A stretch of DNA of 55,391 nt, filler included, from Platydemus manokwari (lineage: Eukaryota), in assembly GCA_037951405.1 (NCBI GenBank). It is 5 parts of 5 records of this genome, joined end to end, with 100 filler letters (N's around TTAATTAATTAA, not from the genome) between each part and the next. Parts side by side here need not be neighbours in the genome. Positions count along the whole stretch, not along the records: positions 41,277 to 55,391 come from JBBMOY011525856.1; 4 more parts are not named here. One strand, 5' to 3'. Below the pieces are notes generated by a model that was not told where the DNA came from, ran no database searches, and saw only the letters and a program-made list of their open reading frames with translations. Of the stretch, positions 1,294-55,391 are shown piece by piece. The translations under genes were made by a program, and so were the position numbers. Positions within the stretch are counted from its first letter, which is position 1, and each line of letters starts with the position of its first letter.

Positions 1294-2472
1294 ATGGACG
1301 AATTTAAATTTATGTAAGTTTCTCAAATTATATTTTTAGTCATCCTAATGTGTTCATAGACCACCAAATGATAAAGAAAACAAATCTACTCCGATTCGTA
1401 ATAAACCAAAAATAAATTCGCATTTGACACCAATTTTAAATACTCCAAATGGTTCAAAAGTAAACCATCCATTTATTAAGAATCTTATTACAAATAGATA
1501 TAATTCTCAAATTAATGATGATATTTTCCAAGAAAAAGAAAGTACACCAAATATCGGTGCGTTCTCACCAGATTTTGTTGGGACACTGTTTCCTAAAGAA
1601 ATCAACACAAGTCATCTTCAATTAAAATGTTTTGATAAATTGTACCAAAAGGTTCATTTTTCAACCGGTTATGAATAAATTAAATATTAATACATTTTAT
1701 TTAGTATCGGCATTATTTGAACGTAAAATCTTCACAAATATTAATTGACGAAAGCATTGCACCGAGTCCAGATTCGGCGATTGGATCGTCCATTCAAACA
1801 ACTCGATCCAGTCTGTCTGAAATGAGCAATTTCAGCAACTCACGCTTCACCAATAATACGCCACCCTCACAGTTCAAGTGGAATCGAAAAGAATACCGTT
1901 CAGATAATTTCGATCAAGCTTCATTGAATATTGATTATTCCAATGAATTGGATGAATGCAGTGATGATGAATTGATAAACAGCCGTAATCTTGAGTCAAC
2001 ACAAATATTCAACAACTCGACTCGTTTGGCCGATAATAAATCGATGCGTCGATTTTCGGCTATCAGAACAAACAATCATCAGAATTGTGATGATAATGAT
2101 TCATTTTCGAATCTCAATTCGAGAAAACGTCGTCGCGTGTCGCCAGTTGCCAATGATACGAGTATTTCGTCGATTTTGCGAGATTCAGGATTGGACGATT
2201 TGGAAAATAGTTTCAGTTCCAAACAGCGTATAATGAAGATATCTGTAATGGATTCAGATATGGATGTCAGTTATTTATCATCGAGTTCCAGTAGTTTTCA
2301 ACAGCAATTTTTACGATCTAGCCCAAGTTTTCATTGGAATTTTGCTATGGAAGCTGACATGAATTTGTCGCCTATAAAGTCTGATATTGGTGATAAATTT
2401 CGAATGTTTCCCACTATCGATCTTTCGCCAATTAAATCGAATCCCAACGATGACGAGAATGATTTTTTGTAA
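1294..2472 (+). CDS. BORA: Bora (aurora borealis)-like protein, copy A, 359 aa; join(1294..1313,1360..1651,1705..2472)
   Basis: GT-AG introns of 46 and 53 nt join the ORFs in frame. The N-terminal motif series TP..KVNHPF / DIF / FSPDFVGTLFPKEIN / ESIAPSP parallels the Bora N-domain (NPF..SPSVF..WSIDQLAVINPVEID..VIVPSP). Ser-rich disordered tail with SP/TP sites and a KEN sequence near the N-terminus. Confidence 0.7.
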
Positions 2473-3326
2473 TTTACTAATAAAATTTTATTAAATAATT
2501 GTTAATTTTTCAACATATTAATTTCTTTATAAATTTTTCAAATCGTTTTACTTTATTAAATTTCATTTACATGGATTGTTGCTAAGTAGCGATTTTCTCG
2601 ATTTCGTAAATCATTTTTAAAAAGTGAATTGTTTTACCAGACTAACTTTGTTTCTTTAATCTGGAATATTTCGAACTTTGTCTTAATAAAATTTTGTTTA
2701 AAAATACTTTTCAAATAGTCATAAAATTATCACGTTTTATGCAAAAACACACAAGGTCAAATCCCATATAATAGTGCACTTTTCTAAAGTTGTATATGGA
2801 ATGTCAAGCCATATAAATAATTTCCTATGAAATCCCAACATGAATATTGCGTAATAAATAATTTGTCAATTCCTTACACACTTGTTAAACAGTAACTTTA
2901 AACTGTTAAATTGCCACGATCATTGATTTCTACATTATATTTGGTCTCTATTGTTTATAATAGCTTATAACATCAATTAATATTGTTCAATATCACAGTA
3001 ATGGTTGATAAAAATATAATCAAAATATTATTAAATATAAAACATGACAGATGACATCATTTTATGGAGTAGTTTTGTGTGCAATTATCTAATAACCGTA
3101 TATTGATTTATGATGGTACATAAAATGATATAAAATGAAATACCGAATCATTCCGATACATAAATATTTATAATTCAAGAAACACATCTGACAAATCCAA
3201 CACAGAAACCAACCAAGATTTCAATAAATCAATAATATACAACACTACATTGAAATATATCTCATTGATCTCAATATAAAAATATTTCTGTGCCCAATAT
3301 TGATATACATAATCAATGTTATTATA

Positions 3327-4971
3327 TCAAATATCTTCCTCGGTATCCATGTCATCATCGGTAATGCGCTTAATCGGAGACAGATTGATATTATTCATCG
3401 TGAGAAAATTGTATTTGGCATGAGGACTAGATCTCATATAATTGGTCCAATGAGATTGCTCGATTAATGAACTCGTCATGTGATCATCACAAAACATTGG
3501 TGAACCAATAATCGATTGGTGTCTTATCGACCAATTATCTGTCAGACAAACATTATTCTCTTGATCAAACATTTGATTCGATTGGTGATTATTATCTTCA
3601 ATTGACATTTCAGATCCATTGATGATAAATGAGCGATTGTTATGTCCAGATCGATATTCTTCACGATTCCATTTGAATTTGGAAGGCGGTGTTTGAAAGA
3701 GTGGAACAGGAGCAGTGAAATTATTTTCAATATCATTGCAACTGGGATCAGTCAATTGCAACGAGACACCGATTCCAGAATCGTGTGGTTCTGGACTTGG
3801 TTTTATTATATTTTCCGTGAAGAATTTAGCCGATGTTTTATCGAAATAATTCTGATACTAAAAATTGAAAGGAATATTCAATTCAATATCCAACCGATAT
3901 CACTATAAGTCGAATAATAGCAACTATGTGGCAAATTTATAAATTCAATAAATCGATAAAATAAACGTCATCGACACTGAAATTTGTGATAGAAATTGTT
4001 ATTTACGATCTTGAAAAGTAAAATATTTCTTATGCTTGAGATTTTAATCAATAAATATGTTAAGAATATGAACTGAGTTCGACTCTAATAAAATATATAG
4101 GAACAAGTAGAATATTTGTAGGTAATAAGGAAGCCATTGGGATCGGTAATACAAAACAGTTATGTCGGTTTTGCAGCCTTTTGTACCTAATTATTAAATA
4201 GAACCAAAGAATCCATTAGTAAGAATTTTAACTAATGATTTCCTTAGCTCCACTTACTACTTGTGCCAAAGTACTTGTTATGCAATTTAGTCCCTTACAC
4301 GTTATATCTTTCATCAATGCATAATATATCTTTGACATATTTATATTCCTTATAATGAAATCTCTTCATTTATATACAAAGGTCATCTCATAGTGATTAA
4401 TACATCTTTTGGTGGACTTTCTTACTCTTTCATCTAAACACTACTCTGTCTTGGTACATCAAGTCAAATTATACCATTTTATATAAATCAAGATTAGTTT
4501 ATATGGCTAGAAAAATAAATAATAATTGACTTTATTAGAATCGAAAGATTTAGTCTAATAACGGTTGCTGAAAATTAAACTGAAATTAACACTGTGATAT
4601 CAAAATCTAAAGTTTAATATCGTTAAAATTAAAATTTAATTACTTGACAGAAATTCAATATGGCTTACTTGTTTGTATAAATTTTCTTCGAACTGATGTT
4701 GATATTCAACATTGGTATTAATTTCCTTCGGAAAGAGAGTACCAACTAAATCAGGAGACAGTGTATTAATATCTTGATGAGGATATTCACGGTTTTTATT
4801 AAACATATCTGGGCTGGTGAATTGTTTATCTAAATTTGTCATAACATGAGACAAAAATGGATGATAAATTTTTGTGCCCTTGGGTGTATCAAAACTTGGT
4901 AATGTATCAATCATTTCGAAATGTTGGGTAGAAGAAGGCGGTATATTATTGTTATCTTTAAGTTCATTCAT
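3327..4971 (-). CDS. BORA: Bora-like protein, copy B, 277 aa; join(complement 4669..4971, 3327..3857)
   Basis: An 811-nt phase-0 intron (GTAAGC...TAG) lies at the same position as intron 2 of copy A. Motifs TPKGTKIYHPF, TSPDMF, LSPDLVGTLFPKEIN, AKFFTENIIKPSP (cf. Bora EFFTKDVIVPSP). Shares PPS.FKWNR.EYRS and NLSPIK with copy A. Confidence 0.7.
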
Positions 4972-5419
4972 TTGACTAAATCTATCAAAGCATTGAACGA
5001 AATTTACAGTAAGCTTTAAAATTTAAGATGTTTTTGAATAATTATTAAATGTTTATTGTAAGTATGTGATAAATATTTTAGTCATGAACTCTAAGAAGCT
5101 TGCATTTCAAAAAATAGTCAAATTTAAATCAATACAAATAATTTTAAATAACTTCATGAATATTAAAACATCTCTTTGTCTTATATGATTGCTATCAAAT
5201 TTCTTGTTGATTTATAAAGTTTTATTTCATTGAAAGAAAAAATATCCAAAACTATTACTTCTTTTACATGTTAATTTAGATTGGTTTCAAAAGCAAAGTA
5301 TATGTTTTATATACAATCAGGTAAAAGTTAAAATATTTGTATCATATTGTTGCCATTAGTTATGATAATTAAGTTAATAATTTTTTAAAAAGATTTAAAT
5401 AAAAGAAATCAAAATTAAT

Positions 5420-11153: not shown

Positions 11154-14100
11154 TCATGACCATGTTGGTTGGCCTCGATACGGATATGCAGTTGTGGTGA
11201 TGGCAGCTGACAATGAAATAGGAGAATTATTGATCGCGGAGCAATTTTGTCTTAAGCTGCTGTTGTTGTTCGTGACGGTCAAGTTTGGTTGGACGTTGCT
11301 AGGCTGGACTTGACCAGAAGAGTTGGGATTCTTCAGTTCCAACTCAACAAGAAGCGAAAAATGATCACTGTTGAAATGGACGTGTGGTGCCCCGACGATC
11401 TTCTGTTGTTCAAACCAACTTTCTGGAATTTGCTTGAGATTTCCTAATAGATTCAAGTGATTCTTCGAGAAGAATATGTAATCAATTATTCCTCGGAAAT
11501 CGTATCTGAAAATGTTAAATAATAATAAAAAATTATCAATAATAATAATAATAATGGTAATGAGGTCAATAATATAGGTCAACTAATGAATAAAATCAGT
11601 TGCAATAATCATGAAAAGGTGCCAATAGCACCATACACACTAAGAGGAACTGCACTAGTCGCCCTCCTACCCAGTGACATTCAGGAATATAAATATATTT
11701 CACATAAAACTGGCATGAAATTAAGCCACTAATTGATATGTTGTCATAGTAACAGAGAAATATCTTACGTGTAATTGGACCATTTCAAACCACTCTCGTT
11801 TTCATCTTTGTATGCACGATCGAAATTGAAGCGATGCTTTAGCACATCGTTTTCGACGAATTCCTCTTGAATTGCACTCCACTCATTAAATAGATATTTG
11901 TCCCCAAAATCCCTGAAATCCACGTGACTACATTCAACCTCACCCTTAATCAAATAATCCACCACCCCGGAATCAGGAAGTGAGTTCAAATCACCGCAAA
12001 GGATTACAGGCATCTACAAAATTAGTCTCATATAACATCACAACGATCGATTAGCATTATTACTTCACTAGGACTAAGATATGGCATATTTTCGGTTTTA
12101 AAGTAGTCTCGAATATAGTTCCACAATTCTGATGACCAAAACAATGTCTGGATGAGCTTAACATCACTATATTCGGGATCCCAATGAATGTGACCGGTTG
12201 ATACACATAATTTACGCTTATTCATTTCTTGATAAACATTGATATCGATAAGGGAAAGTTGTTTAATCAAATAGTAGCTCACTTGGATCTTTGGCCTCTA
12301 AAATAATGCTAAGTGCTACATTATCCCTATTCATGACACGATTCAATAATTCCGGTGCTGGATTTTTACTGACACCAATGCATGATAGCATAAATTCATG
12401 TGTTACATGATGCACTTTTTCAAAGCTAGTAAACAACAAATCAATCATTTATATATATTAAAAAAAATAAATGATGAATATTAACGAATTACAAGTACTG
12501 GTTGAATGGGTGTGATGTAGAATCGAAAAAATATCGATAAAAAAGGAGAATGAATGACGGTTAACATGTCATTTTTATTTATTATTCACTATTAATAAAT
12601 AATGATTCATTATTGACCTAATGATGTACATTTGCACTTATGATGGATAAATTCACCATACTTTCTCATCACACACGATACTGATATCGATTTATTCTAA
12701 TAATTACTTCCAAGATACCAAAAGGTAAATAAAAATTTTAATAAATAAAAGTGATGAAGACTAAATAAGAAAAAAGGAAAATGCGAAATAACACAGCAGT
12801 GAAAACCAAAAATAATAGAAAAGGCGGAAGGCGAACAAATTCCCGTAAAGACCAAAAGTTAATTTTGTTATTTAACAAAGAAATTTTTGATCAAAGGAAA
12901 GAAAAGGCTTGAGGGAAACACATAACGCCATCAAAGGTAAAGATCGATTGATTGATGTGCAAATTATAAGTGCATTTCACAGATGATTACATTAATCTTT
13001 AATTTGAGCAGATCATAGAATATTTACAATAGAATTGATCAGATGTGCATTGGCCACTAATATATCTCAATGATGAGACGACTAAATAATATTTTTAATG
13101 ATAAAGATGATCTAGATATAGACGGCTAATCGAACAAATAGACCGTGAATCTCATCTCATCAAATGATTTTCTGTTTAGATAACAAAACAATAGCTATTG
13201 ATTATATTATTTACAAAAATCAATAATAAACAAACCATTCAACTTTCCAAAAAATAGCGCAGCCGTCTACGCATTTGGAATCGGATTCGTGCATTGTTCT
13301 CGATCGACTTTTTGGTACAAATAAGCCATCATAATTTCGCTTTCTCAATTCCAAAGAAAACACATTTTCATATTGGGACGTCTCCAATTCCTAATAATGT
13401 AAGAACAAATATAACAATAATAATATTTATATAAAATTGAAAACAAAAATAATAAGACACACCGAGTGAGTCACATGAAAAGAAAATTATGAGTGGATGT
13501 GGTGTCGTTAAAAAAGTGCTCGAGGAAAACAAGTGAACGTCGATTGACTAAGAAGCGTCCAAAAATCGATACACCACCTCCTCCCTGCCACAGTGAAAAT
13601 CAATGCAAAGCACTCCAAAAATATGCTCGATGAATCAACAAAACAGAAATAAAAGTACACGCGTCGTATAACTCTATCAAATTATAGGTTGGCAAAATTC
13701 TATTAATAGAAACACTTAAGCAAAATCATCAGATAGAAAATTTATTCTAAACTAATGAGATATCGACACAATAAATATTCAAGAAATATATTAGAGCATG
13801 GCAAATAAAGCCATGTAAAATACAGAACAATCGATTTATCACATAGTTCTAGCTAGAATTTTGCATGGGAGTTTCGTACAAATGGTAAATGGAATTTATC
13901 TATGTGTATAAATCATTGAAACTGCAATGCTGGCAACCAAACGTACATGTCTTTTGTTATTGTTATTACTATATTTCCATGTGTACATATGGCATGATTT
14001 TTTACCGTGATAAACTACCGACCGTAGCTTAGTGTAGATGTACTGTAGCAACCAATATTCACACTTACCTGTAAACAAATAATGTCTGCCTTATACTTCC

Positions 14101-20100: not shown

Positions 20101-20884
20101 TATCAAAACCACACAAATTTCTCCCCCATTTTTTTTTCTGAAATCGAAAAACAAAAACTATATCCACGAGTAAAGGAGATGGAAATGAAAATTTTGTGTA
20201 CGTGTGCAAAAATATATCAATTTGATAAGATGATATTTTATCGATAATAACCAGCTGTGCTATGAGATTGAATGACAATTACTGACAATTAAATCGATTG
20301 ATTTCACAACAAAAATCACTTAATTTCATTATTGAATTAATTAAATGTTAAAATTAAATTGAACTTTTTTTTAAAAAATTAAATTAATGAAATCAATAAG
20401 CACAAAGCAAATGAATATTTAAAATTACCCAGCATTTTAACGTTGTGAAGAAATCCAAACGTACACGGAACTTCTTTGATCTTGTTATTAGATAGTAGAA
20501 TATTTCTCAATTCAAACATATAACCCATCTGAACGGGAAGCGATGAAATATTATTATAACTTGCATCAAGATTTTTTAAATTTTCCAGTTTACAAATTTC
20601 TTGCGGTAAAGAATCAAATAAGTTATTCTTGAGAACTAATGTTGTGATAAATGTATGAGAACAGATTTTGATTGGAAGAGTTTTCAAATAACCTGAAATA
20701 CATACATATATAATGGTCTTATTATTTTTAATAAAAACCATGTACCAGTCAATTGTAAACGAAACCAATCGCTAGTTTTCCCCTTCTCGATTTCTTCCTT
20801 AGTCATTGCTCGACTAGGCATATTAAATTCTGCTGACCCATATGCGCTTTGTTTTCGTGTAGATGAAATATATTCACTTGACAT
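11154..20884 (-). CDS. CNOT6: CCR4/CNOT6-type deadenylase (LRR + EEP nuclease), 594 aa, 10 exons: 20884-20746, 20692-20429, 17045-16941, 14694-14635, 14226-14069, 13390-13236, 12425-12283, 12227-12064, 12013-11769, 11505-11154
   Basis: All junctions are GT-AG and in frame (total 1785 nt). LRR repeats are followed by EEP motifs CYNVLC.KYAT..MY.YCP..AL.WEYRK, ADIICLQE, DGCAIFWK, HIHWDPEYSDVKL, CGDLNSLPDSGV, FRGIIDYIF and SDH. Confidence 0.96.
14903..16031 (-). CDS. Putative alternative first coding exon of CCR4 (376 codons + 1 nt; Ser/Asn-rich with Cys clusters)
   Basis: Long ORF on the same strand inside CCR4 intron 3. An in-frame TAA directly precedes the ATG. A GTGAGT donor at 14902-14897 is phase 1, matching the phase-1 acceptor of exon 4 (14694). 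Confidence 0.7.
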
Positions 20885-23787: not shown

Positions 23788-24890
23788 CTACGAATCATCT
23801 TGTGTTTTATCGCCATTATCTTTTGTTTCGATTACACGTTTTTTCACATCAATTGGCCCGTCTTCGCTGTCATCTGAATCGAGTATTTCTCTTTTCCGAT
23901 CGACATTCCTACCGGCACTAATAGTTGATGTTTCTTTCGCCAAGCGGGTTTTTCTATTCAGCAATGCAAAATAAATCATATCAGCATCAGTGGCATTTTG
24001 CATAGTTAACAAATACGATTTTATGCCTTCTTCACTCTGAGCTGTAATACGGACAGCTTTAATACTAGCTCTAGCCAAACCCATATCTGACCATATCAAT
24101 GTGTTTACGAGAACTTTCAATCCTCCTTTGGACCGAACAACCAAGCGAGATTTGATTTTTGAACTCTTTTCATCGGTCATATCGTTCAAATGGACATTGC
24201 AAAAGCCTTTTTCCACCCATTCATTTTTTTCTGAATTGAAGAGAAATAGTTTGCACAATGTTTTCAATACATTCGTTTCTTCTTCTTCTCCAGTTATGAT
24301 TTCTGCTTCTTCGTATTGCTGAGTGATGATTTGTTTCTGGGAAAGTTCGTTAGCACTTTTCCGTAAGGCATCATTATCCGAATTTTGTTTGGAATCTTCT
24401 TCATTGTTATTACACACTAAATCCTTGAATTCTTTCGCTGATTCTTCTTCATTGGGTTTAGATGAATCGTGCTTAACGACACGGGAGAAAATATTTTCAC
24501 CGAATACAAATCCACTCGATTCACTGACTTCTTTCTTGTCAGCTTGTTGGTCTGAAGTTTGTACATGAGATAAGTCTTTGGGATTATCACCGAGAACTAA
24601 GAATTTGTTCGAAGGGGCATTACTGCTAGCACTAACAGCAGCTTTATCTGTTCGAATCTGTTCGGCTTTTTGAGTTAATAATGAAGGCTTAAGCATAAAC
24701 ATGGACTTTTTCATTGTAGTTTTATTTTGAAGAGATTTATAATTTTTTGCATCTTCCGGAGTATCGTGAAAGCTTGGGTTTGCTAAAAATGTTATTCAAA
24801 TATTAATTAATTTAAAATCTTACTTTGTTCATGAATAATAGTGTCATCCTTTCTGATACTTTCCGATTTGGAAATATTAACATCGGCCAT
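23788..24890 (-). CDS. RANBP3: RanBP3-like Ran-binding protein, 353 aa; join(complement 24824..24890, 23788..24782)
   Basis: A 41-nt intron extends the ORF to an ATG at 24890. An FVFGEN motif precedes a Ran-binding domain (ITGEEEETNVL...CKLFLF...EWVEKG...LNDM...SRLVVRSKGGLKVLVNTLIW). Confidence 0.88.
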
Positions 24891-28129: not shown

Positions 28130-29456
28130 TTATTTTTTAGTCTGTGGTCTCATTTCTTCATTACATGGTCGAATAAAGATTTTTGGTTTCTTATTGGGAT
28201 CATTGTATTCATGGCCTTTGCTCCAATCATATCCGAATGCGTAGGCGAAAATATTGCCCTTTGAATCGATAGCACTGCTGGTAATCGGTTGCGGTTCCGT
28301 CGTTTCTGAACCTTTCAATTTCGTTCGGGCATCTTTGTCCCAATACGTGTATTTGCCATCACTGCCCACAGTGACCAGTGTTTGATATACGGGATGAAAT
28401 GCGAGATCGTTAACGGCAAATATGTCCTGGGTATTGGTCGGCGTCACTTGAGATCGATGGCATTTGAATGTAAAACTATCTTTTGGGTTCTGGCTGGCTA
28501 AACATTGAATACCAACTCGACCTTCGATGCTGCCCAGAGCATAACCGGCCGGATTGGAATTGTTCTTATCGAGAAAAATACTGATACAGCGACTCTACAA
28601 AATCAAAGAAAATCCATAAAATCGGGAAAATAACTTCTAAAAATCATAAAATTGATTCAAATTTTTAAAAAAAAGTTAATTTTTTTACAGAATTATAAAT
28701 ATTAAAAATTATTTAATTTTACTAATAAACGCCTCAGACTTACTTGATATTTCAATTGGGATTCCAACTTTTTGTATTCGACAGGACCGTTTTCGAGATT
28801 GTAAACGATTACCGATTTATCAGCCAAAGCAACCGCTGCCATCGGATAATGAACAGCGGCACAATACACTCGTTCACTCAAATCTATCACAGACATGGGG
28901 TTTGGACTTCTCAAATCCCAAAACCTGAATAAATAAACGAATAAAATTGATTACAATCTTCTCATATTGGCTTACTTCAGTTTTTTATCCCAACCACCCG
29001 TCATTACGCATGTATATGTAGGAGCCTGAATGTGATGAATGGTTTTTATTGGGGCATCATGGGTTGCAATTTTCATAATTTGATTTGTAGATATGTCCCA
29101 CATATAACCACACTTATCAACACCACAAGCATAAGCTTTAGTACCATCCTGTTATTTGTTAAAATAATTCACCATAATGTCAATAATCTTACAGCACTCC
29201 AGCACGCATCTAAAATAGGACCTTGCAAATTCTGTTGAGCACGAGGTATTACTTCTCCATTGTTAGAAATTTCCCAAATTCGAACACTTTTATCCCAACT
29301 AGCAGCCATTAAATAGGTTTGAGATAAGGATGATGGGCTGAATCTCAAGCACGACACACTATCTGAAGGTGGATTTGGTACTTCTATATCTTTAATCATA
29401 TTTTGTGATAAGTTTGTATTATTGTTTCCAAAAAATGGTTTGGTTGTGTAAGCCAT
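28130..29456 (-). CDS. RAE1: mRNA export factor Rae1/Gle2 (WD40), 360 aa; exons 29456-29193, 29148-28976, 28924-28744, 28594-28130
   Basis: Motifs [93 protein letters not shown]. Introns of 44, 51 and 149 nt, all in frame. Confidence 0.97.
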
Positions 29457-35056: not shown

Positions 35057-36274
35057 ATGGATATTGATCAACAAACTGAAGACATAATTAAGCCAACGTT
35101 TTCCGAAATCAAACTTTTTCAAGCTATTGAAGAAAAAGATTTCGAACTTGTAAAAAGCTGTATTGAAAACGAAGATTGTGACGTTACTTATCAAGTAAAT
35201 TCGAAAAATAAAATAGAAAAATTATAATAAAAATCTTAAAATGTTTAGGACCAAAAAACTGGTGTAAGTCCTCTAATGATTGCTGCAGGTGTTGGCAGTA
35301 AAGAAATTTTGCAATTTTTGCTTGGTGAAGGTGCACCTTGGAATGCCGTTGATAGGCAATACAAATGCGCAGGTGATTATGCATATATGAATGGTCACCA
35401 AGATTGTATTGATGTATTGCTTCAACATGCAACTATCTCAGAAATGCTTCTCGGTCGATCTATCATGGTAGATATAATATTTTGCAAATTTTTTTTCACA
35501 TTGAAATAGGATCAAAAACGAACTCTCAATAGCAATTATTTAAGCAAAGATGTTTCTTATACCGGTGATAAGTTAATGGATTCCGAAGGTTTAGCAGTCA
35601 TGATGGATTGGGAAAAAGATCTTATGGAAAAACATGCTGCATTTATTTGTCACGCAGACAACCAAATTGTCAATGACGATGGTGAACCAAGTGCCAAATC
35701 GCAACGGAAATCAGTACGCGTTTTAAATGTCGGATTTGGTATGGGTATCGTTGATACAGCTATTCAAAGCCACAATCCAACTGAACACTACATCATCGAA
35801 GCCCATCCCAAGGTTTACGAGCATTTGACTTCCAGTGGCTGGGCTAACAAACCAGGTGTGAAGATTCTTTTCGGAAGATGGCAAGATGTTCTTCCTACAT
35901 TGGACGTAACCTTTGATGGAATATTCTTCGATACTTACGCAGAAGATGATCAAGATTTGAGAGACTTCCATGAACATTTACCAAATATCTTGACTCCACA
36001 AACTGGAAGATATTCTTTCTACAATGGCATGTGCCCGGATAATGTTTTCTTTCACGCAGTTGCTTGCGAAGTGACAAAATTGGAATTGAATCAGTAAGAG
36101 AAGATTTGTTTTGATTTTAAGGGTTTATTGTTGTTTAGCATTGGTCTGAGCTGTGAATACGAATCGGTCAAAGTCGATGTGGCCGACCCAGAGATATGGA
36201 AAGGTGTTAAAACTCGATACTGGTACTTTGATACCTACTATTTGCCGAAATGCCTTTTTATTCCGAGCTTATAA
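35057..36274 (+). CDS. RMT2: Rmt2-type (type IV) protein arginine N-methyltransferase with N-terminal ankyrin repeat, 358 aa; join(35057..35194,35249..35467,35510..36093,36139..36274)
   Basis: Ankyrin-like TGVSPLMIAA...LLGEGAPWNAVD, then AVMMDWEKDLMEKHA, VLNVGFGMGIVD, HYIIEAHP, GRWQDVLP, FDGIFFDTYAE, YSFYNG and WKGVKTRYW...YYLPKC. Introns of 54, 42 and 45 nt. Confidence 0.92.
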
Positions 36275-39402: not shown

Positions 39403-40224
39403 ATGGAGTTCTTGACAATGTCGAGATCGTTGAACGAAATTTTTAAAACCACATCCTATAAAAATATTTTCGGACTTTTAGCCTTAATATTAGGAGTGCC
39501 TTTTACATTTGTATACGAGATATTTATTTTATCATATTATAATTTTCCAAATAAAGAATTCCATATCGTTTTTGCGTTATTTTTGTTATTTCAAGTTTGT
39601 TCAAATTTTTTCTATGCTACATCAACGGATACGTCGATGAAATGTTGTCAGATATCTTATCAGGACATGGATAAAGTGTGTAACAATTGCAATAAAGTTC
39701 ATGTACCAAGAACTCACACTTGTCCCATATGTGACCAGTGCATAATCAGAAGAGACCATCACTGTTGGTTCATTGGATATTGTGTTGGTGCAATGAATTA
39801 TCGATATTTTTTGTGTTTGCTGTTCTATGTTTGGATTTCTGCTCTTTATTGTAATTTCTACAATTTGGACTTTGTGTTTGAAATTTTCGATAAAAACTAT
39901 TTATTGATAATTGGTTGTCATTTAGCTCCACAATTTCTCATCATAACAGGGTTTCTTACTGTTAAACAATCACTAATTGGAATAATTACATTCGTGGGAT
40001 TTGGATTTTTTATTGTATTCACTTGCCTCATTGTTATGCAAATGGTACAACTTCGAAACGGTCAAACTTATCATGAACGAAAAATGAACATCACCAAATA
40101 TAATTATGGGATTTTGAAAAATTTTCATCACGTTTTAGGCGATTCGGGGTTTTGGGTTTTAATAAATCCATTTATGAAATCCAATGTGAATATCCATTTA
40201 CAAATTTGTGAAAAATCAATTTGA
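39403..40224 (+). CDS. ZDHHC24: DHHC palmitoyltransferase, ZDHHC24/22-like, 273 aa, single coding exon
   Basis: Cys-rich domain CNNC...PRTHTCPICDQCIIRRDHHCWFIGYCVGAMNYRYFLCLL, several hydrophobic helices and a GQTYHE..YNYG...NF..VLG tail. The subfamily is less certain than the family. Confidence 0.85.
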   Translation: MEFLTMSRSLNEIFKTTSYKNIFGLLALILGVPFTFVYEIFILSYYNFPNKEFHIVFALFLLFQVCSNFFYATSTDTSMKCCQISYQDMDKVCNNCNKVHVPRTHTCPICDQCIIRRDHHCWFIGYCVGAMNYRYFLCLLFYVWISALYCNFYNLDFVFEIFDKNYLLIIGCHLAPQFLIITGFLTVKQSLIGIITFVGFGFFIVFTCLIVMQMVQLRNGQTYHERKMNITKYNYGILKNFHHVLGDSGFWVLINPFMKSNVNIHLQICEKSI

Positions 40225-44866: not shown

Positions 44867-47800
44867 ATTTATTGGTATGCGCTAGTCGAATATTAATATG
44901 AATTGATATATAGAATGAAGCTGAATTTCATTGATTTTTAATACTTAAACTAGGACTAATAGTTTACTTGTCAAAAATCGAGTACATGAATATCGATTGT
45001 AATTAATTCACGAGGAAGTTAATTAGACTGATCTACATGATAAGTTTCGGGCTCTTGAATTACTTTTGTTTACTATATATTATTATTGATTATTTTTATC
45101 ACTATCCAGAACTTTATCAGTCTGTGGAGTCCTTTCGACTCTGCTAGTATTTATACCTTCGATTAATGTTCTATGTCTCAACGTTTTAAACTTTTATGGA
45201 TATCAGTGGCACGGCGTAGATAGCTGTTTACATAATTTAAACTCTATCAATGCCTTTTGTTGAATTAAATCTTATTTCAATTATTTTATCAGTGTCTTAA
45301 CTTTATTCCTATAATATTCCTAATGGTTGATGATTGAAAATTATTATATTTAACTATGAAATTTAGAATCCTTATGATCAACAAGCTTATTGATAACAAG
45401 CTCTTTATGGATAAAAATATTTATTAAGGATTTCAAATTTACAAAATTCAGTAGTTTGTACAAATATTGCGTAATGGACACAAATTAATATTTTATACTA
45501 TTATTACGTTAAAGACAAGTATACTGAAATTAATTACGCTATACAGTTCAACGTAGGCATCAACTAATAATTCAGAGTAGCAGATCGTAGACTAAATAAG
45601 GCTCTTCATCGATATTAGGAAAGTGTATTTGAAGGTATTTGAAAAAAAATAAAATAAAAAATCTAATATTTATTATACATAAATGTTTGCCTTCACAAGG
45701 CAATGGGATATCCCTCACCTCGACTTTAAGTTTTTATTTGATATTGGTTTGTAATGTTTTTTTTTCCATTATTGGCTGCGCAGAGTGGCAATACCATGGT
45801 TTCCGGCAAAGTAGAATCTTCTGTCTTGGCATTTTTTTGAGGTTTTATCATTTTTTGTTGATATTGATAGAATGATTATGATTATGATGTAGAAGACTTA
45901 GTAGATATGAGGTTCGCTGATTGATTCAGTTGTCCTTTCGGTAAATTTGCTTTGTTTTCAGAGCTCATAGAGAATGTCAATCGAAGAGTGTTGTTATTCA
46001 TTTGGGTTTGCCTCCAGTGTATTTATAGATTTGCTAGAGTTTGAGATCTTAGCCGAATGTTGTTGGCATTGAGAATAAATTGATCACGGAGTATTGAAAT
46101 TATTATTTGTTGTTGCACATGTGGAAAATAAAGATAAAGAGGTTAAAATTAATATTTAAAATTTATACAAATCACTTAATAAAAATTGTTTAATACATCT
46201 AAACACCAATAATCAAATTATTTGCTACCATTATACACCTATAATCAAATCACCAAAAAGATTCAAATTTGCTCATTTGACGTTATCCAAGTTATTTGAA
46301 ATTCATATACCTTTTGCATAGCTTTGTAACATTAATTTATCTCTCTGTTAATGTTTACCAAGAGGCACTGTATTTCTATATCTCTGCATGTTTTTCTCAA
46401 AATTGCTTTTATTTCGACACCTGATCAGCTAACTTTTCATTATCCACATACTGTCGATCACATTCGTCCTTTCTATTTGATGTGTTACGGGCTTGTGGCT
46501 TTAATTAATTTTTCTATCACTTTCGACTTCATTCTTTTTGAAGATCACTGTTGTCTTGATCAGTCTCGATGAGTCCTAATCAAGCCCCATGTACAAACTA
46601 TTAAACCTATCAATCTTTTCTTCAAGTCATGATTATCTGCAAAAATGATCTTAATTATTTTAATGTTATCAGTCTTAAATTGATATTTTAAATTGCCTAT
46701 GTAATCTATATTAAAAAACAATCGGACTCACGTTGATTTGAAATAATATAAATTGAAATATGAATTCCGCAAAACTCGAGTCAATAGCAATGACGCTTCC
46801 GCAAACTGTGTCTGTTGGACTGACGGCAAATTCGAAGTTAATGATCTTAGTGTTTTCCAAATTGATGAGGCCTGACGTCACGAATAATCGTAAAGTTTTA
46901 ATATGGTTATTTTTTGTTTTCTGTGTGCTATTATCCTTCATTTTATATATATCGTGGTCTCCCATATATTATCCCTCAATAAATTTTGTTTTGTTATATT
47001 TTTTATTAAATTCCTTAGAGATTTTAATTCTATTCTAACTAATATTTGCCATACAAAAGATGCTTTATAAATTTATATCGGAAATATGTTAAATTTTCAA
47101 AATTCCCATGATAATTATAAATATAAAATTACATAATACTATATATATATATATTATGATTATAATTTTTATAATTATGAATTTCTTTTAATAAATAATT
47201 CATCCAGAATCGGAAAGGTTTAATGAAGGAATAAAAATTTTTACAATTAATGTAAAACTTACATTAATTCATGCAGATTAGTTTTATAAAACTGAAAAAC
47301 GTTACATTACAATAATCATAAATTAACTGGTACATCAACTGACACATATTGTTACATTAATCGATATCGTTCGATTAAATGTTAAACTACGATATACATG
47401 AAATATAAAAATTGCTACATTATACGTTGATAATCAACATTTGAAATAAATTATTGCTATACTATACTTAAATAATCAGGTATTATTCGGCAGTTATCAA
47501 GGGTTTTCTACTCTTTTGTTTTTTCACTTTCGATATACTGCTCAGGCTCCGTCCACGGCTGCTCGTATTCCAGCTGTTCCGTGATCATTTGTTCATCCTC
47601 TTGATCTTCAGTTGCCAACCATAATTGTTCTAAGAAGATCTGATCTTGATCAGTCAATTAATAGCTTTCCTGTGGCACTTCCATATATTATATAATAAGT
47701 TATTGGTTGGATTTGAATTTTTTATAGGGGCTTTAATAACAGGTATGATGACCGCGTTATTGAAAAAACAGATGCTCAGTTTATAAAGGTTTTCAGGAAA

Positions 47801-49382: not shown

Positions 49383-50700
49383 TTAGATTATCATGATTCG
49401 CCTTTTCTCTGCAATCTTGTTTGCCCTCAACTGATGAAATTGCTTTATATGCTTTTTCCAGAATTTGTCTCCTTTTTTGCCCATATATTGTTCCTGGGCT
49501 GATTTAAGCTCCCATAAATCTCTCCTAGTTCGGATCACTGTTTTTTCTGCGGGAAACTTTCTTTCCACCCACTTAAATATGCTTATAGCTTAGTTTAATA
49601 TTCTGTCTTCTTGTATTTTCATTTGATATCTTCTGTCATAATTATCTTCCATTGAATCAATCCATTTCTCATTTTTGATTTTGTAGATTTCTATGACTGC
49701 TTCTATCTCTTCGTTAATATTTCCCAATTGGATTATTTTTCTTCTTATTATTCTCTAATAAATGTTCTTCATATTTTCGCTTGGGCAAATGTTGTTTTCT
49801 TTCAATATTCTATTCATTGTTTGGGCTCCTTTGGTGTCCAATAACTTCTTCCATGAGAATAGACAAAGCTCTCAATTTCTTCTTCAGACGGTATCAAATT
49901 ATTATTTTTCCATTGGTAAGCTTTATGATTTATCGACTAATTTCTTCAGAATCCACCGCTCCTCGTAAAGAAACTTCTTTAAGCTTATTTTTATTCGAAG
50001 AGTAGTGTTTAATTTCCCTCCTGGATCAACATTTTTGCTCAACAATAAATTTTCCTCTATGATCTCTTAAACTTATCCATACAGAGTATTCTTTATTATT
50101 ATCATCTGTTGTTTTTTTACGGCAAGATAATTATCAAAGAATTGCTCTTCATATCTATTGATATCATTCGGCTTACGAATAAATGCCATTTTGTTCTTTA
50201 GTTTATCAAAAGAAATTCTGATGGGACTATCAGTGATGTACGGGTTAGGTTTTCGAAATTCTACTGGATCAGTTGACCAGGTTCAATAAACTCATTAGCG
50301 TGTAAGGGATACTTCTCGCTCTAATTGTAAATTTTCGAATTCTGCTTGGCTATTTTTGAGGCAAAAGATAGATAAACGCTGATGAAACAACTTCGAGGTC
50401 AACTTTTTCAGAATGATATTTAATAGTGATCTCAGTCTGTGCGTTATGAGCGATAATTGTTGTAGGGGTAAGGGCAAATTGGAAATTACGCTTTTGAAGT
50501 TAAAGCTACCTTATTCTTGAGAATATTAGATGATTATTGTTCTTTTCAATTGCGACTATATTCTTAGGTGGTTTGGGAGATGATGTTTTCTTCCTAAACC
50601 GAAAGGTACTTTCTTCACTTCTGATCGAATATTGTTGAAAAAATTTTCTTGAAAAATATTGGATGATGATAGTACTTGCTTCCATATCTTTGTGTTAATA
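49383..50700 (-). pseudogene. Decayed ORF of unknown function within the element
   Basis: ORF fragments 50477-50295 and 49568-49383 plus intervening stop-interrupted coding-like sequence (e.g. WSTDPVEFRKPNPYITDSPIRISFDKL). No family recognised. Confidence 0.45.
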
Positions 50701-50759
50701 GTAATTTTTATAACATAAAAAATCAATTACTTGTATCAATTGATTTGGAATTCGAAATT

Positions 50760-52290
50760 AGAGGCTTGATCTTTGCTTTTATATATTTTTGGTACTTTAA
50801 TCCTATTGGCTGATATTTTATGGACTCTATTTTCATTGGGTAAAAATTTTGGGGTAATTTTTCATTAGTTAATTCTTTTCTCCCTATTATTTTGTTTACC
50901 AGGAATTTTTTATTTACAGGAATTAATTTGTTTACATTGAAGTTCCATTCAAACAATATCTTATAATTCATTCTTATTTTATTTCTATAAAAATTGGGTT
51001 TCCATTCAAACCAAATCCAAAGAGATTATTATTCCCTATTCTATCATTACCACAATAATTTTCATTAAATATGCTTCATGATTTTTCAACTGGTATTTAT
51101 ATTTATTGTTCCTACTATCCATATTTGCACATTTAAATATCAACTCATATTCAAAATTGTTGATTCCATTAAATGTCACTAAGATATTTCCTATTTTACT
51201 AAAATATTTATTTATATACAAGTTCTGGGTCTGTTATAGCTAATGCTAACTTGGTCTTTAAAACTTCTCTACTGAGCTTACAATCATTCAAGACTAACTC
51301 CATGTAAACTTTCTCCATTAATCCTTGGGCTAAGTGATAGAAATAGTTCAGTTTATTGTTAAGGTATTGTGCCAGTTTCACATCTAACTTATTCACTTCT
51401 TTTTGGCATCTTTTATTTCATTTTCACTTAAGTATATCATCTTATAGTTTGTTACTATTTAAGCACATCTCTTATCTTGTCTTTTATATATGAATCTCAT
51501 TCCACTTTTTCCTTCTTCACCCATGTATACTGTAGGCGTTTCCTTCATTCTAACTTCTGATGTTTCTCTATTACTGTCGGGTAGATAATTTTCTGCAAAT
51601 TTTGTCTCCTTAAATGTTTTACCATTCATTGAATGTAATTTTTCCTTTGTTAATAATGTTAATAGACATTGGTATAGATTTGACTTATACATATTTCTTT
51701 TCTATATTCATAATCTATCCATGTTGTCATTTTTTTAGTTTGTGGATCAAATATTGTGTGAAATTCTGTTAACTCTATGATGTAATGTCTTAATCCCATT
51801 ACATTTTCTAATGTCTTATTCCACACTTGATTTTCCGATTCTTTACAATATCCTCCTGTTCCTCTCCAACCTGCTAGTCCTATTGTTTGTCTTGTAATAC
51901 CTTTTCCTAATGTTATAGCATCTCCTCTTGAAGTGTAATATGTTCGTTTCTCAAATGCTTGTGTACATTTTTCTCTGTTGGTATTTCTGACATTGGTGCC
52001 TATTCTGGTTCTAATATTGTTGTATATGCCTTTGATGTCCATGAACAATGAAATGTTAGCTCTTGATACATTATTTTAAACTATCTGGCTTTTTCAAACA
52101 GAATTTCGGACTCTTGGTACACATAAATTTACTAGGTTATAAATTTTGTTAAGTTTACAGGTTATGCTTCTATGTCTATTAATGAATATTTTGTCCCCAC
52201 TGTGGTTTCGCACAATCATAACCGTCTTATCCTCCCATTAATCCTACTAAATACATTGTTAATAATGTTTGAACTATGGTAGTAAACTTA
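50760..52290 (-). pseudogene. Chuvirus-like (class III / gB-like) envelope glycoprotein pseudogene
   Basis: Across frameshifts: hydrophobic leader, GYDC (52223-52212), YSLIDIE, IYVYQESE, ELTFHCSWTS, REKC..TYY..TRQTIGLAG..GYC..ENV, then YLNNKLNY...MEKVYMELVLNDCKLSREVLKTKLALAITDPE. The motif order matches that recalled for chuviral glycoproteins and the related env of BEL/Pao elements. Confidence 0.7.
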
Positions 52291-54211
52291 GATTTTTGCT
52301 TAGGCTGTTTTTTTTTCTGATGGTTTTTCCTCTTTTTGGACTATGGGTTTCCCTTTACCATCATTTGTTCTAACATTGATTGTATTAATTTAGTCCATCC
52401 ATTATTTTGATTAATCTCATTTTCATATTCGTTTGCTATTAATTCCGCTCCCTCATCTTTATCGATTATTTGATTATCTATTAAATTTATTGTTGTTTGT
52501 AAAGTTGTTAGCATCTTTGCAGGTGCTTTTTCTTCATTTATTATATTAATAACTTCTTTGTTTGTTTCTTTATCTGATATTTAATTGCTTGTTAAAGTTA
52601 TTTTTTCTTGGTATGGATAAAAAACTTTCTTGATTTCGAAGCAATTTCCTTAATCTTTTCTTTGATTTTGACTCCCATGACAAGGATCATGGCATTGTCC
52701 TTGTAAACATCCCATACAATTTCTTAACCCATCTTGCTGTTTCCTTATTTGCTTATTCACTTTATAGATTTTTGGTGATTCTATCAATTTCATGAACTCT
52801 TTTCCTCATGATTCCAATTCCTCTGTATTTTTAACTTCTTACCTCTTCTTTTTCTTCTTTGATGTTTCTCTTTCGTCATCATTGCTTTTATCATCTACAC
52901 TTCCTACCTCATCTAATATTTCATCCAGGTCTATTGATTTTTCTTTCTTCTCTTTCTACATTTTACCATTTCTATTTCTTCTGATTTATCGATTTTATCA
53001 TTATTTATTTCTTCTTTATTATTTTCCTCACACCTTATCGTGTTTATTTCATTTTATTCCCAACATACATCTAGGTTTGCATGTTCCCAAAGCATTGTTC
53101 TAAGTATTACTGGGGTTTTATTTAGTTGAACTTACTATCTAGTTGACTGTACTGTCCCAACGTATGCGAGCTCTATTTTTACTACACCTGATTCCAGAAG
53201 GTGTGTTTTATAACAAGAACAATTAATAATAAAATGTATTTAACGCAAATAGATTCTACAATATAAATAATTTTATTATTAAAAGTTAAATGATATTGAG
53301 AATACAATTTAGGCGATTATTAAACAAATAACCAGGCACGTTCGGAGGGGTTTTCGATTTTAATTAATTAAAGAAATTTATAGACTCTACCGATAGAGCT
53401 GTTAGTTAAATTTTCTGGTATTTTATGTGTATTCCTGTAAGAGCCCTAAATGTAGTTATTGGAGGTTAGGCGTACTTAGCACCGTAACCCCGTCGACTGA
53501 ATTTGTTGTGATTTTTTTAAGTTAATAAGTTGAACTGGGTTCAATCTAGAATCTTTATGTACAGGATTTGCGTTGAGTTATATAATCAAAATTATATAAA
53601 TATATTAATGAATAGTGATTAGCTACTGTTGTAATTAATAATTATTTATGAAAGATATGATAATTAATGTGAAAAGTATTGATTATTATAAAGTTATTTA
53701 TCTAATTATGATAATGAAACGTTATTATTCAATGCTTAATTGTTTAAATAGTCTTACGCAATTTACCAAAATCCTGTTAGTGAAATAATAATGAATGACT
53801 CTTGACGATTGAGTACAACAGCTGTGTTAATCGTACGAGATTGTATATGGTTGGCATAGGAAAATTGAGGTGATTTCTGATCTAGATAGTTTATTTGTTT
53901 CCTATCTGCTTGTTGGTTAACGATAATTTTATCTTCGAAAATTCTTTTTTAAGAGACTGCAAAATAGATCTTTTGCCTTGGTACACTTAAGATGCTTTTT
54001 CAATAATACTGTATGAGAGAGTTTCATTTTCTTTTTTCGTTGTTTTTTTTAACTTCCGTCTCTTGTTCTTTTATACTGTGGCGTCTATTTATACCTTTAA
54101 TTTAAAGTCAATGAATAAATCTATAATAATATTTCTACCAATGATAAAACATTAGCTCACAATTAATGGTTAACATCAATTACAACGAAAGTTAAAAATC
54201 CAAGAAAGTTT

Positions 54212-54292
54212 AAATATCAATTCATGTCAATATCCAAGTTGATAAAATATCAATTCATGTCAATATCCAAGTTGATAAAATATCAATTCATG
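54212..54292. repeat. Perfect 33-bp tandem repeat, ~2.5 copies
   Basis: Unit AAATATCAATTCATGTCAATATCCAAGTTGATA at 54212, 54245 and partially at 54278. Confidence 0.95.
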
Positions 54293-55391
54293 ATTTGATT
54301 GTTAAATTTTTACATTGGTCATCATTATTGAGGTTGACTTATTAAATTCTGGTTCTGACCACCATCATCTGGATTGTTTGCACCTTTATAATCAAGGTTT
54401 TGTTGCATGGTATATTTGTCTGATTAGTTGTTTCTTTTATTGGATTATTTTTGATTATGTTTTATTTTTTACCAATGAATTTCAGTTTCTAATTTTTGAT
54501 TTTTTTATTGGGTTAGAAGTTACAATTTACACCAATTGTAAACCTTAGCCTCCAATTCATCTTTTTGACTCTCAATAGTTTTTGTCTATTTGACGTGTTG
54601 TATGGTTCTGTAATCTCTTGGCCTTGTGAATAAATCATATCTCTCATAATTTAGTATATGTATAGCTACTTTAGTTAATCCTACTGCGAATTCTACTTGT
54701 GCATGTTCGACGTGTACAAATTTTATTCGTTGTTGTTCTTCTCTTTAAATTAATATTTTTCAGCCAACATACCCCTTGTATTCTATATACCTTCAACCAT
54801 TTTCCAAGCGGTTTACATTATCTCTTGCAATGCCGAAGGGTAGGTTGTATTGTTTAATAAAATCTCATAAGTAATAAATAACAATAACTTAGACTGCATA
54901 AAGATACTTTGATGATATCATAAATAATAGTATTTGTTAGTTGCTAAAACTTCTACTTAGATCAATGTTGTCTTATTAGCCTCACGTGGTTCTCACCAAA
55001 CCCAGTTACAATTCTAAACATTATAGTTTTCTTATTTCAACTCGCAATCTCCACTATATGAAGATAATATAAATTGTCAGTATTATATATTATGTATGTA
55101 CTATGTATTATCTTTAAATTCTCAATCGATGAATCAACTCGTTACTGCACTATATATTTATTGATACAACACAATTAATACCAAAAAAGAATTATTTTAC
55201 AATACGATATACACCGAATAAAAATTTACACCAAAACTTTGTCCTAACAAATTCTGGGTGAAGTGATGATTAGTATCTCCAAATATAGTTTTCTCACAGA
55301 CTAGTTTTAATCGTCACAAAAAAGTTTAAAGTTGTTATATTTTTATTTATTCCCATTAAATTCTTATTTTTAAGTCTATTGTCTATCCTTC

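Follow-up and report, generated by a model that had tools for sequence, protein, structure and literature searches.

A decayed class III envelope gene, very probably from a Ty3/gypsy gag-env-pol retrotransposon, in the Platydemus manokwari assembly

The envelope fossil and its flanks

The window, i.e. the whole stretch of 55,391 nucleotides that was analysed, is a pack of five stretches of the Platydemus manokwari assembly, the last of which, contig G000:C1525856, carries an envelope fossil flanked by further retroelement parts (Table 1). The original prediction had joined frames across stops and frameshifts at 50760-52290 into an ordered series of chuvirus-like envelope motifs; all of these are found on the minus strand, where they are spread over three frames and follow the order given, and the gap left at 51692-51400 is filled by a frame -1 piece that had gone unquoted. 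The stretch 51220-51375 matches the Pfam family PF24664 (Monjiviricetes_fusion) with 30.7 bits (E 1e-7; curated cut-off 27), and 51662-52075 reaches 18 bits (E 7.5e-4), which is under the cut-off. The envelope of an intact relative from the same genome scores 75.1 bits against 50760-52290, compared to a maximum of 23.9 bits among 200 triplet shuffles of that stretch, 104 of which gave any match. By sequence homology, 51220-52223 is hence a decayed class III envelope gene, corresponding to residues ~1-347 out of 534 in the intact relative's ectodomain. It is directly preceded by the hydrophobic stretch originally described as a leader, which presumably acted as a signal peptide.

The envelope part extends over about 51220-52295 rather than over all of 50760-52290, because envelope DNA homology stops at 51188-51220: copies of the envelope align down to this point, and copies of the 3' spacer align up to 51220. 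The right-hand part of the predicted extent thus stands, and 50760-51220 is other element DNA. In agreement, the terminal 'FKC' (51137), previously read as envelope, probably does not belong to it, as the DNA leftwards of 51188-51220 matches the 3' spacer of the element. No pol or post-integrase match was detected in the window.

Table 1. Positions of the envelope fossil, its motifs and flanking parts in the window, and of post-integrase modules in relatives
Feature	Position	Strand (frame)	Remarks
Class III (gB/chuvirus-type) envelope ectodomain fossil	51220..52223	minus	N-terminal ~65%, through central helix; PF24664 and relative's envelope
Putative internal signal peptide of the envelope	52224..52295	minus	hydrophobic, directly before GYDC; same place in relatives
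GYDC	52223-52212	minus (-1)	
YSLIDIE; IYVYQESE; ELTFHCSW	52188; 52128; 52062	minus (-3)	
REKCTQAF; TRQTIGLAG; GGYC; ENV	51976; 51895; 51856; 51808	minus (-2)	
YLNNKLNY; DCKLSRE; ITDPEL	51366; 51285; 51237-51220	minus (-3)	
Junction of large internal deletion	51188..51220		envelope C-terminus, anchor, all pol and post-integrase cassette gone
AT-rich spacer, polyprotein to 3' accessory ORF	50691..51187	minus	collinear with contig C1444421
3' accessory ORF fossil, ISG20/REX4-like DEDD exonuclease fold	49413..50690	minus	core about 50130-49700
Bcl-2-like domain remnant preceding the envelope	52395..52613	minus	C-terminal part ending in GW motif; 66% to open-frame copy L008
Gag-to-env linker piece of polyprotein, decayed	52674..53107	minus	DNA and tblastn
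~960-bp interspersed repeat abutting the fossil	53116..54084	.	copies 71-88% identical
Signal peptide, ectodomain, Thr-rich stalk, TM module	L191 (G000:C94677) 49-2397	minus	relative
Signal peptide, ectodomain, Thr-rich stalk, TM module	L072 2-1426	plus	relative
Signal peptide, ectodomain, Thr-rich stalk, TM module	P0128, P0130, P0138, P0275		after integrase

On the 5' side of the envelope, the DNA at about 52590-53107 is 71-80% identical to many genomic copies, and the linker piece within it matches an open-frame copy at 67% (tblastn E 2e-31). Since other copies hold about 0.4-2 kb extra between the linker piece and the Bcl-2-like part, the window copy is internally deleted near 52600. For the Bcl-2-like region, a profile of six genomic copies weakly matches Bcl-2-related protein A1 in the PDB (E 0.0026), with Bcl-2 family members making up the majority of the top 60 PDB rows; for the window's own subfamily, whose row is the most divergent in the profile, the call depends on location together with the GW motif. 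On the 3' side, the arrangement is mirrored by contig C1444421, in which a window-type envelope, a protease, a spacer of the 50691..51187 type and the 3' ORF all lie in one orientation. A LINE remnant had been considered for 49400-51190 and was dropped, as comparison with the copies assigns this DNA to the 3' region of the envelope-carrying element.

Copies of the repeat at 53116-54084 are located on contigs other than those of the envelope-element matches, and it may represent the end region of another LTR element. The repeat holds an imperfect hairpin, and one copy follows an integrase ORF at a distance of ~750 bp on C1800171. Further along, at 54211-54294, a ~36-bp unit is tandemly duplicated (about 2.3 copies, directly visible in the sequence).

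Host of the contig

Elsewhere in the window, ordinary host exons are present (11157-11582, 20382-20771, 23791-24795, 28133-29456 and 39403-40221), their types comprising a RanBP1-domain protein, RAE1, a DHHC palmitoyltransferase and what we take to be a CCR4/CNOT6-like protein, with an LRR match at 20382. The RAE1 exon lies on a different contig of the pack and shares 58-65% identity with named animals. In a tree of 37 rows, including 36 among the 120 matches listed, it emerges as the sister of seven named parasitic flatworms (97/93), its own branch being long (0.69). Three of seven translated COX1 loci in the assembly read AAA where Asn is expected, i.e. the flatworm/echinoderm code. The remaining four lack the flatworm code and look, by their motifs, like snail and arthropod genes. 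The host had been predicted to be non-arthropod, which the RAE1 tree and the COX1 codon use make probable, pointing to a flatworm. The simplest reading is that the assembly combines a predatory free-living flatworm with DNA of its prey, and we infer that the envelope contig belongs to the former. The COX1 loci L089-L096 represent at least five distinct types, only some of which use the flatworm code.

In such a mixed assembly, the contig could alternatively stem from another animal, a snail or arthropod eaten by the flatworm, and carry the same kind of element, in which case the gag-env-pol layout would extend to another phylum. At least four COX1 genes without the flatworm code are compatible with this, as is the absence of an identified host gene on the window's own contig. 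However, the GC content of the contig (28.6%) fits that of the other stretches of the pack (26.6-29.0%), the hundreds of candidate sites of the subfamily are situated on contigs of 27-33% GC, in line with the dominant genome, and the envelope is by eye closest to that of Smed_errantivirus_3 from the planarian Schmidtea mediterranea, as presented in PMC13524379. A prey origin is therefore unlikely. The mixture of host and prey nevertheless has to be kept in mind for anything else found in this genome.

Two further loci of the window were noted. A methyltransferase exon at 35510-36094 (plus strand), with weak Pfam matches only, presumably resembles the fungal/plant Rmt2-type arginine methyltransferases. 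Similar Ser/Asn-rich open frames at 1349-2469 (plus) and 3330-5022 (minus) suggest an inverted gene duplication spanning 1349-5022; one tested piece of it gave no match in Pfam.

The parent element and its envelope class

Searches of the own genome were run on the 911-Mb assembly of 1.99-million contigs. At the DNA level, 49 matches of 71-83% identity (the self-match apart) were found among 40 scored of 229 candidates, and at the family level the 68 scored of 629 candidates gave 76 PF24664 matches, a number of which lie in open frames of 1,200-3,300 residues. The search for intact copies suggested at the outset yielded a distant relative and none of the window's own subfamily. This intact relative, on contig C1468085, spans 14.4 kb with a 3304-aa open frame that encodes, in order, three CCHC motifs, PF24664 (944-1577, 318 bits), protease (1713-1809), RT (2031-2189), RNase H (2273-2402) and integrase (2510-2682). 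The envelope is in frame between gag and protease, here as well as in a 2338-aa open frame, and hydrophobic segments follow the ectodomain and recur near the C-terminus. The two ends of the contig carry a repeat pair, putative LTRs that are only 88% identical over 426 bp; no such pair was seen for the window copy or its subfamily. The envelopes of the intact relative and of the window share 24-55% identity over pieces.

The layout of the window's subfamily was pieced together from several broken contigs. A SUMO-like domain (PF13881, 24 bits vs a cut-off of 23), a Bcl-2-like remnant, the envelope and the protease follow one another on C1137106, the envelope, RT and RNase H on C158233, and the envelope, RNase H and integrase on C1133128. 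The pol pieces share 34-62% identity with the pol of the intact relative, and their Pfam families are exclusively of gypsy/retroviral type (gag-asp_proteas, RVP, RT_RNaseH, Integrase_H2C2). In the gag-like pieces of the subfamily, Pfam detects nothing except one CCHC (E 0.012).

Based on these linkages, the stretch is very probably the broken, internally deleted envelope of a multi-copy gag-env-pol Ty3/gypsy LTR retrotransposon, likely of a free-living flatworm. In relatives, a single polyprotein comprises Gag with CCHC knuckles, SUMO-like and Bcl-2-like linkers, a putative signal peptide, a gB-type ectodomain, a membrane anchor and PR-RT-RNase H-integrase, in this order. We propose that active ancestors would have operated as follows. 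The internal signal peptide would thread the ectodomain into the ER, where signal peptidase would free it, and the anchor would bring the chain back to the cytosol, allowing the aspartic protease to release Gag and Pol there. The trimeric class III fusogen would then let particles enter neighbouring cells, e.g. stem or germ cells. With neither the anchor nor any of pol left, the window copy is incapable of this cycle.

To place the envelope, the intact relative's ectodomain was searched against 1.84 billion representatives, yielding 1,210 proteins at E <= 0.001, of which 20 were looked up by name among the 150 matches listed; a word-index protein search gave five envelope homologues. The closest public relatives are 36-41% identical and mostly long chains, i.e. 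retroelement polyproteins, and nine of the 12 closest that were scanned have protease or pol domains after the envelope in one chain. The AlphaFold model of the ectodomain, computed for the intact relative and not for the window copy (pLDDT 90.5), displays a long central helix (295-342) and a beta-rich fusion domain and matches pseudorabies gB in the PDB (E 9.5e-15, TMq 0.46) and chu-like virus G in BFVD (E about 1e-36, TMq up to 0.76). When the PDB was searched by sequence, the intact envelope retrieved gB only, at E 0.12-0.22. As modelled, the envelope of the intact relative is folded like herpes gB and chuvirus G. A profile or structural match to class III fusion glycoproteins, which had been set beforehand as the decisive test, was accordingly found, the fold being that of a distant relative. 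Together with PF24664 and the homology to chuvirus G, it corroborates the claim of a fossil chuvirus-like class III envelope gene.

The origin of the gene is a separate matter. One possible reading is an endogenous viral element, with the G gene of a chuvirus (Jingchuvirales) copied alone into the genome. The G proteins of Wenling fish chu-like virus and Guangdong red-banded snake chuvirus-like virus are 27% identical to the intact relative (E 3.5e-32), chu-like virus G is among its best fold matches in BFVD, and the G proteins of Chuviridae/Jingchuvirales, including Tacheng tick virus 4, share the PF24664 family, conserved cysteines and a predicted class III fold. In contrast to the envelope here, they are stand-alone genes of ~650 aa in negative-strand RNA viruses, with 18-27% identity, and the retroelement polyproteins are closer. 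We calculated a quick, midpoint-rooted tree from 41 hand-chosen N-terminal halves, eight from this genome, 13 of polyprotein type and 20 stand-alone public ones. The window fragment groups with its own subfamily (100), and L080 and P0122 form the sister of this group (99). All of these are nested in the clade that unites the polyprotein-type envelopes (98), apart from the stand-alone G proteins of chuviruses and insects. The phylogeny proposed earlier thus places the fossil with polyprotein-borne envelopes; because the tree is quick and midpoint-rooted, no direction of capture is claimed. As both flanks in the window are also retroelement, a stand-alone viral insertion is highly improbable, and it is contradicted by the linkage to gypsy pol.

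Capture of the envelope by a BEL/Pao element, the other origin that had been suggested, would place the same glycoprotein superfamily in a different backbone. BEL/Pao elements with an envelope have a BEL-type protease/RT with the Peptidase_A17 marker and carry the envelope after pol. Mosquito elements of this kind, with a captured envelope, are said to have been described by Dezordi and colleagues in 2020. Here, the linked pol pieces match gypsy/retroviral-type families, neither Peptidase_A17 nor another BEL marker is present in the scanned relatives or the window subfamily, and the envelope precedes pol, in frame. Mosquito BEL/Pao glycoproteins did serve as baits for this envelope type in PMC13524379. 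Nonetheless, a BEL/Pao origin is very improbable, and, like that from a chuvirus, gives way to a Ty3/gypsy gag-env-pol element.

Within this Ty3/gypsy element, the window copy is severely decayed. The mature envelope part contains six stops (52164, 52134, 52131, 52083, 52002 and 51461), the signal region one further (52229), and the frame changes four times (near 52190, 51975, 51690 and 51405). Some 65% of the ectodomain is left, whereas its C-terminal third and the anchor have been deleted. At the DNA level, the fossil is 80.5-86.2% identical to eight other copies. Changes private to the window are distributed as 18/11/13 over codon positions 1/2/3 (6.8% of 614 columns), as compared to 41/28/69 for the pairwise differences to an open-frame copy, suggesting selection during replication of the element that ended after insertion. 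The window copy is likely decaying without function. Domestication as a host gene, for which nothing speaks beyond the recognisable homology, is ruled out for this copy by the broken frame, the deleted anchor and private changes without third-position bias. Large internal deletions were observed in several further element copies as well; in L014 (425-1186, plus strand) the deletion joins the envelope in frame to mid-RT.

Published planarian elements and the accessory proteins

Elements of this layout are already published in flatworms. Chary & Hayashi (PMC13524379) describe Platyhelminthes GAG-ENV-POL errantiviruses with an HSV/gB-type envelope, stating that the transmission mechanism is elusive for most elements. 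Their Smed_errantivirus_3 likewise has a Ty3/gypsy pol and a gB-type envelope between gag and pol in a flatworm host, and its envelope shares by eye YQES.F, TIL.P.WAP, GW..TGGYC, ELR.F.A.FD...KKM, CDTG.S, TPT.YM and AMRF..KG with the rows of the window subfamily and L080. It differs in that the window copy is dead and deleted, and in that the present family carries Bcl-2-like, post-integrase membrane and ISG20-like parts, of which a term search of the main text of PMC13524379 gave no sign. The planarian Burro/GYPSM1 elements are giant gypsy-like elements (Arkhipova & Yushenova 2019, PMC6431247), whose polyprotein, according to that report, combines a CCHC Gag, Ubi/SUMO-like and BCL2-like domains, an in-frame envelope matching mononegaviral fusion glycoproteins, and PR-RT-RH-IN, i.e. 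the same sequence of parts as here; decaying fragments with stops and frameshifts are described from Dugesia japonica. However, Burro exceeds 30 kb with about 4,900-5,100 aa, as opposed to 14.4 kb and 3304 aa for the intact relative, in which Pfam detects none of the MATH, BIR, ankyrin and dUTPase domains that PMC6431247 gives for Burro proper. We do not file the present element as Burro proper, the copies of the window subfamily being too broken up for an estimate of its length.

With the layout published in PMC6431247 and PMC13524379, the fossil indicates neither a new host range nor an independent capture, as had been proposed. It is a dead addition to a published class; its protein had been identified correctly, and the framing as a new host range was mistaken. 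The fossil adds one flatworm lineage to the env-carrying retrotransposons and supports their long vertical history, and changes nothing.

The part of the family that deserves attention is the 3' cassette, whose post-integrase portion is a property of the relatives and is deleted from the window copy. We found no report of the ISG20-like ORF and post-integrase membrane proteins in planarian elements, although the extended data of Grohme 2018 or Repbase may list them, and the cassette seems undescribed there. In relatives, one or two signal-ectodomain-TM modules follow the integrase in the same frame, namely on C1468085, on C94677 and on contigs that also hold a window-type envelope; the window's subfamily has two in tandem. 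Among six public relatives examined, four possess such modules and two end at or before the integrase. Pfam gave nothing significant for the post-integrase protein, and ESM Atlas no usable match for that of C1468085. The second ectodomain of C94677 is predicted to consist of tandem fibronectin-III domains: its model contains two beta-sandwiches (pLDDT 84.9) and matches tandem fibronectin-III structures in Foldseek (E 4.5e-6), with middling agreement by VIA-align (best Z 8.6, rmsd 10.7 over 144 residues). Herpes gB requires partner proteins for attachment. For the way in which invertebrate gB-type envelopes find their target cells, a membrane-anchored fibronectin-III protein of the same polyprotein is a candidate; we hypothesize that the post-integrase proteins serve attachment.

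The 3' accessory ORF, represented in the window by the fossil at 49413..50690 (tblastn E 1.6e-99 to the open-frame copy L146), has 118 matches in the genome among 114 scored of 743 candidates. It has no significant Pfam match. A profile of nine copies retrieves human ISG20 (E 1.2e-7) and ISG20L2 (E 2.8e-7) from the PDB, and the ORF of the intact relative scores 0.94 to RNase_T clusters in ESM Atlas, RNase_T accounting for 29 of 30 matches. To read the catalytic acids, we took the ExoI motif to be D-x-E. At this position, eight of the nine aligned copies read D-x-K and the ninth lacks it; GHDLKHD of ISG20 aligns to G[YH]DLK[KR]K in the seven rows of the window subfamily, and the final catalytic Asp is missing in all nine. 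Because catalytic acids are replaced by Lys, the product is likely a pseudo-nuclease, as far as the alignment indicates. At 47511-47663 (minus), 1.75 kb past the main remnant, a stretch that weakly matches the ORF's C-terminal tail (E 6e-4) is perhaps a displaced piece. Bdelloid rotifer LTR retrotransposons likewise encode a nuclease of the DEDD superfamily in an additional ORF located 3' of pol (Rodriguez et al. 2017, PMC5408684). As described there, however, the rotifer ORF3 is of the RNase D-like (DEDDy) kind, retains its catalytic residues and belongs to elements that have no envelope, whereas the flatworm ORF is ISG20/REX4-like, has acidic residues changed to Lys and occurs alongside an envelope.

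Taken together, we tentatively consider it possible, though doubtful, that the flatworm elements are complex enveloped retroviruses, in which a gB-type fusogen before pol would be complemented by one or two separate membrane-anchored proteins for attachment or as decoys, released from the part of the polyprotein that follows integrase (one of them with tandem fibronectin-III domains on a Thr-rich stalk), by a Bcl-2-like blocker of cell death, and by an ISG20-like pseudo-nuclease that would bind the element RNA and shield it. One public member of the family, the 2627-aa env-pol polyprotein P0130, is filed at NCBI as a protein of a Flavobacteriaceae MAG and likely stems from animal DNA that was assigned to a bacterial genome by mistake during binning.
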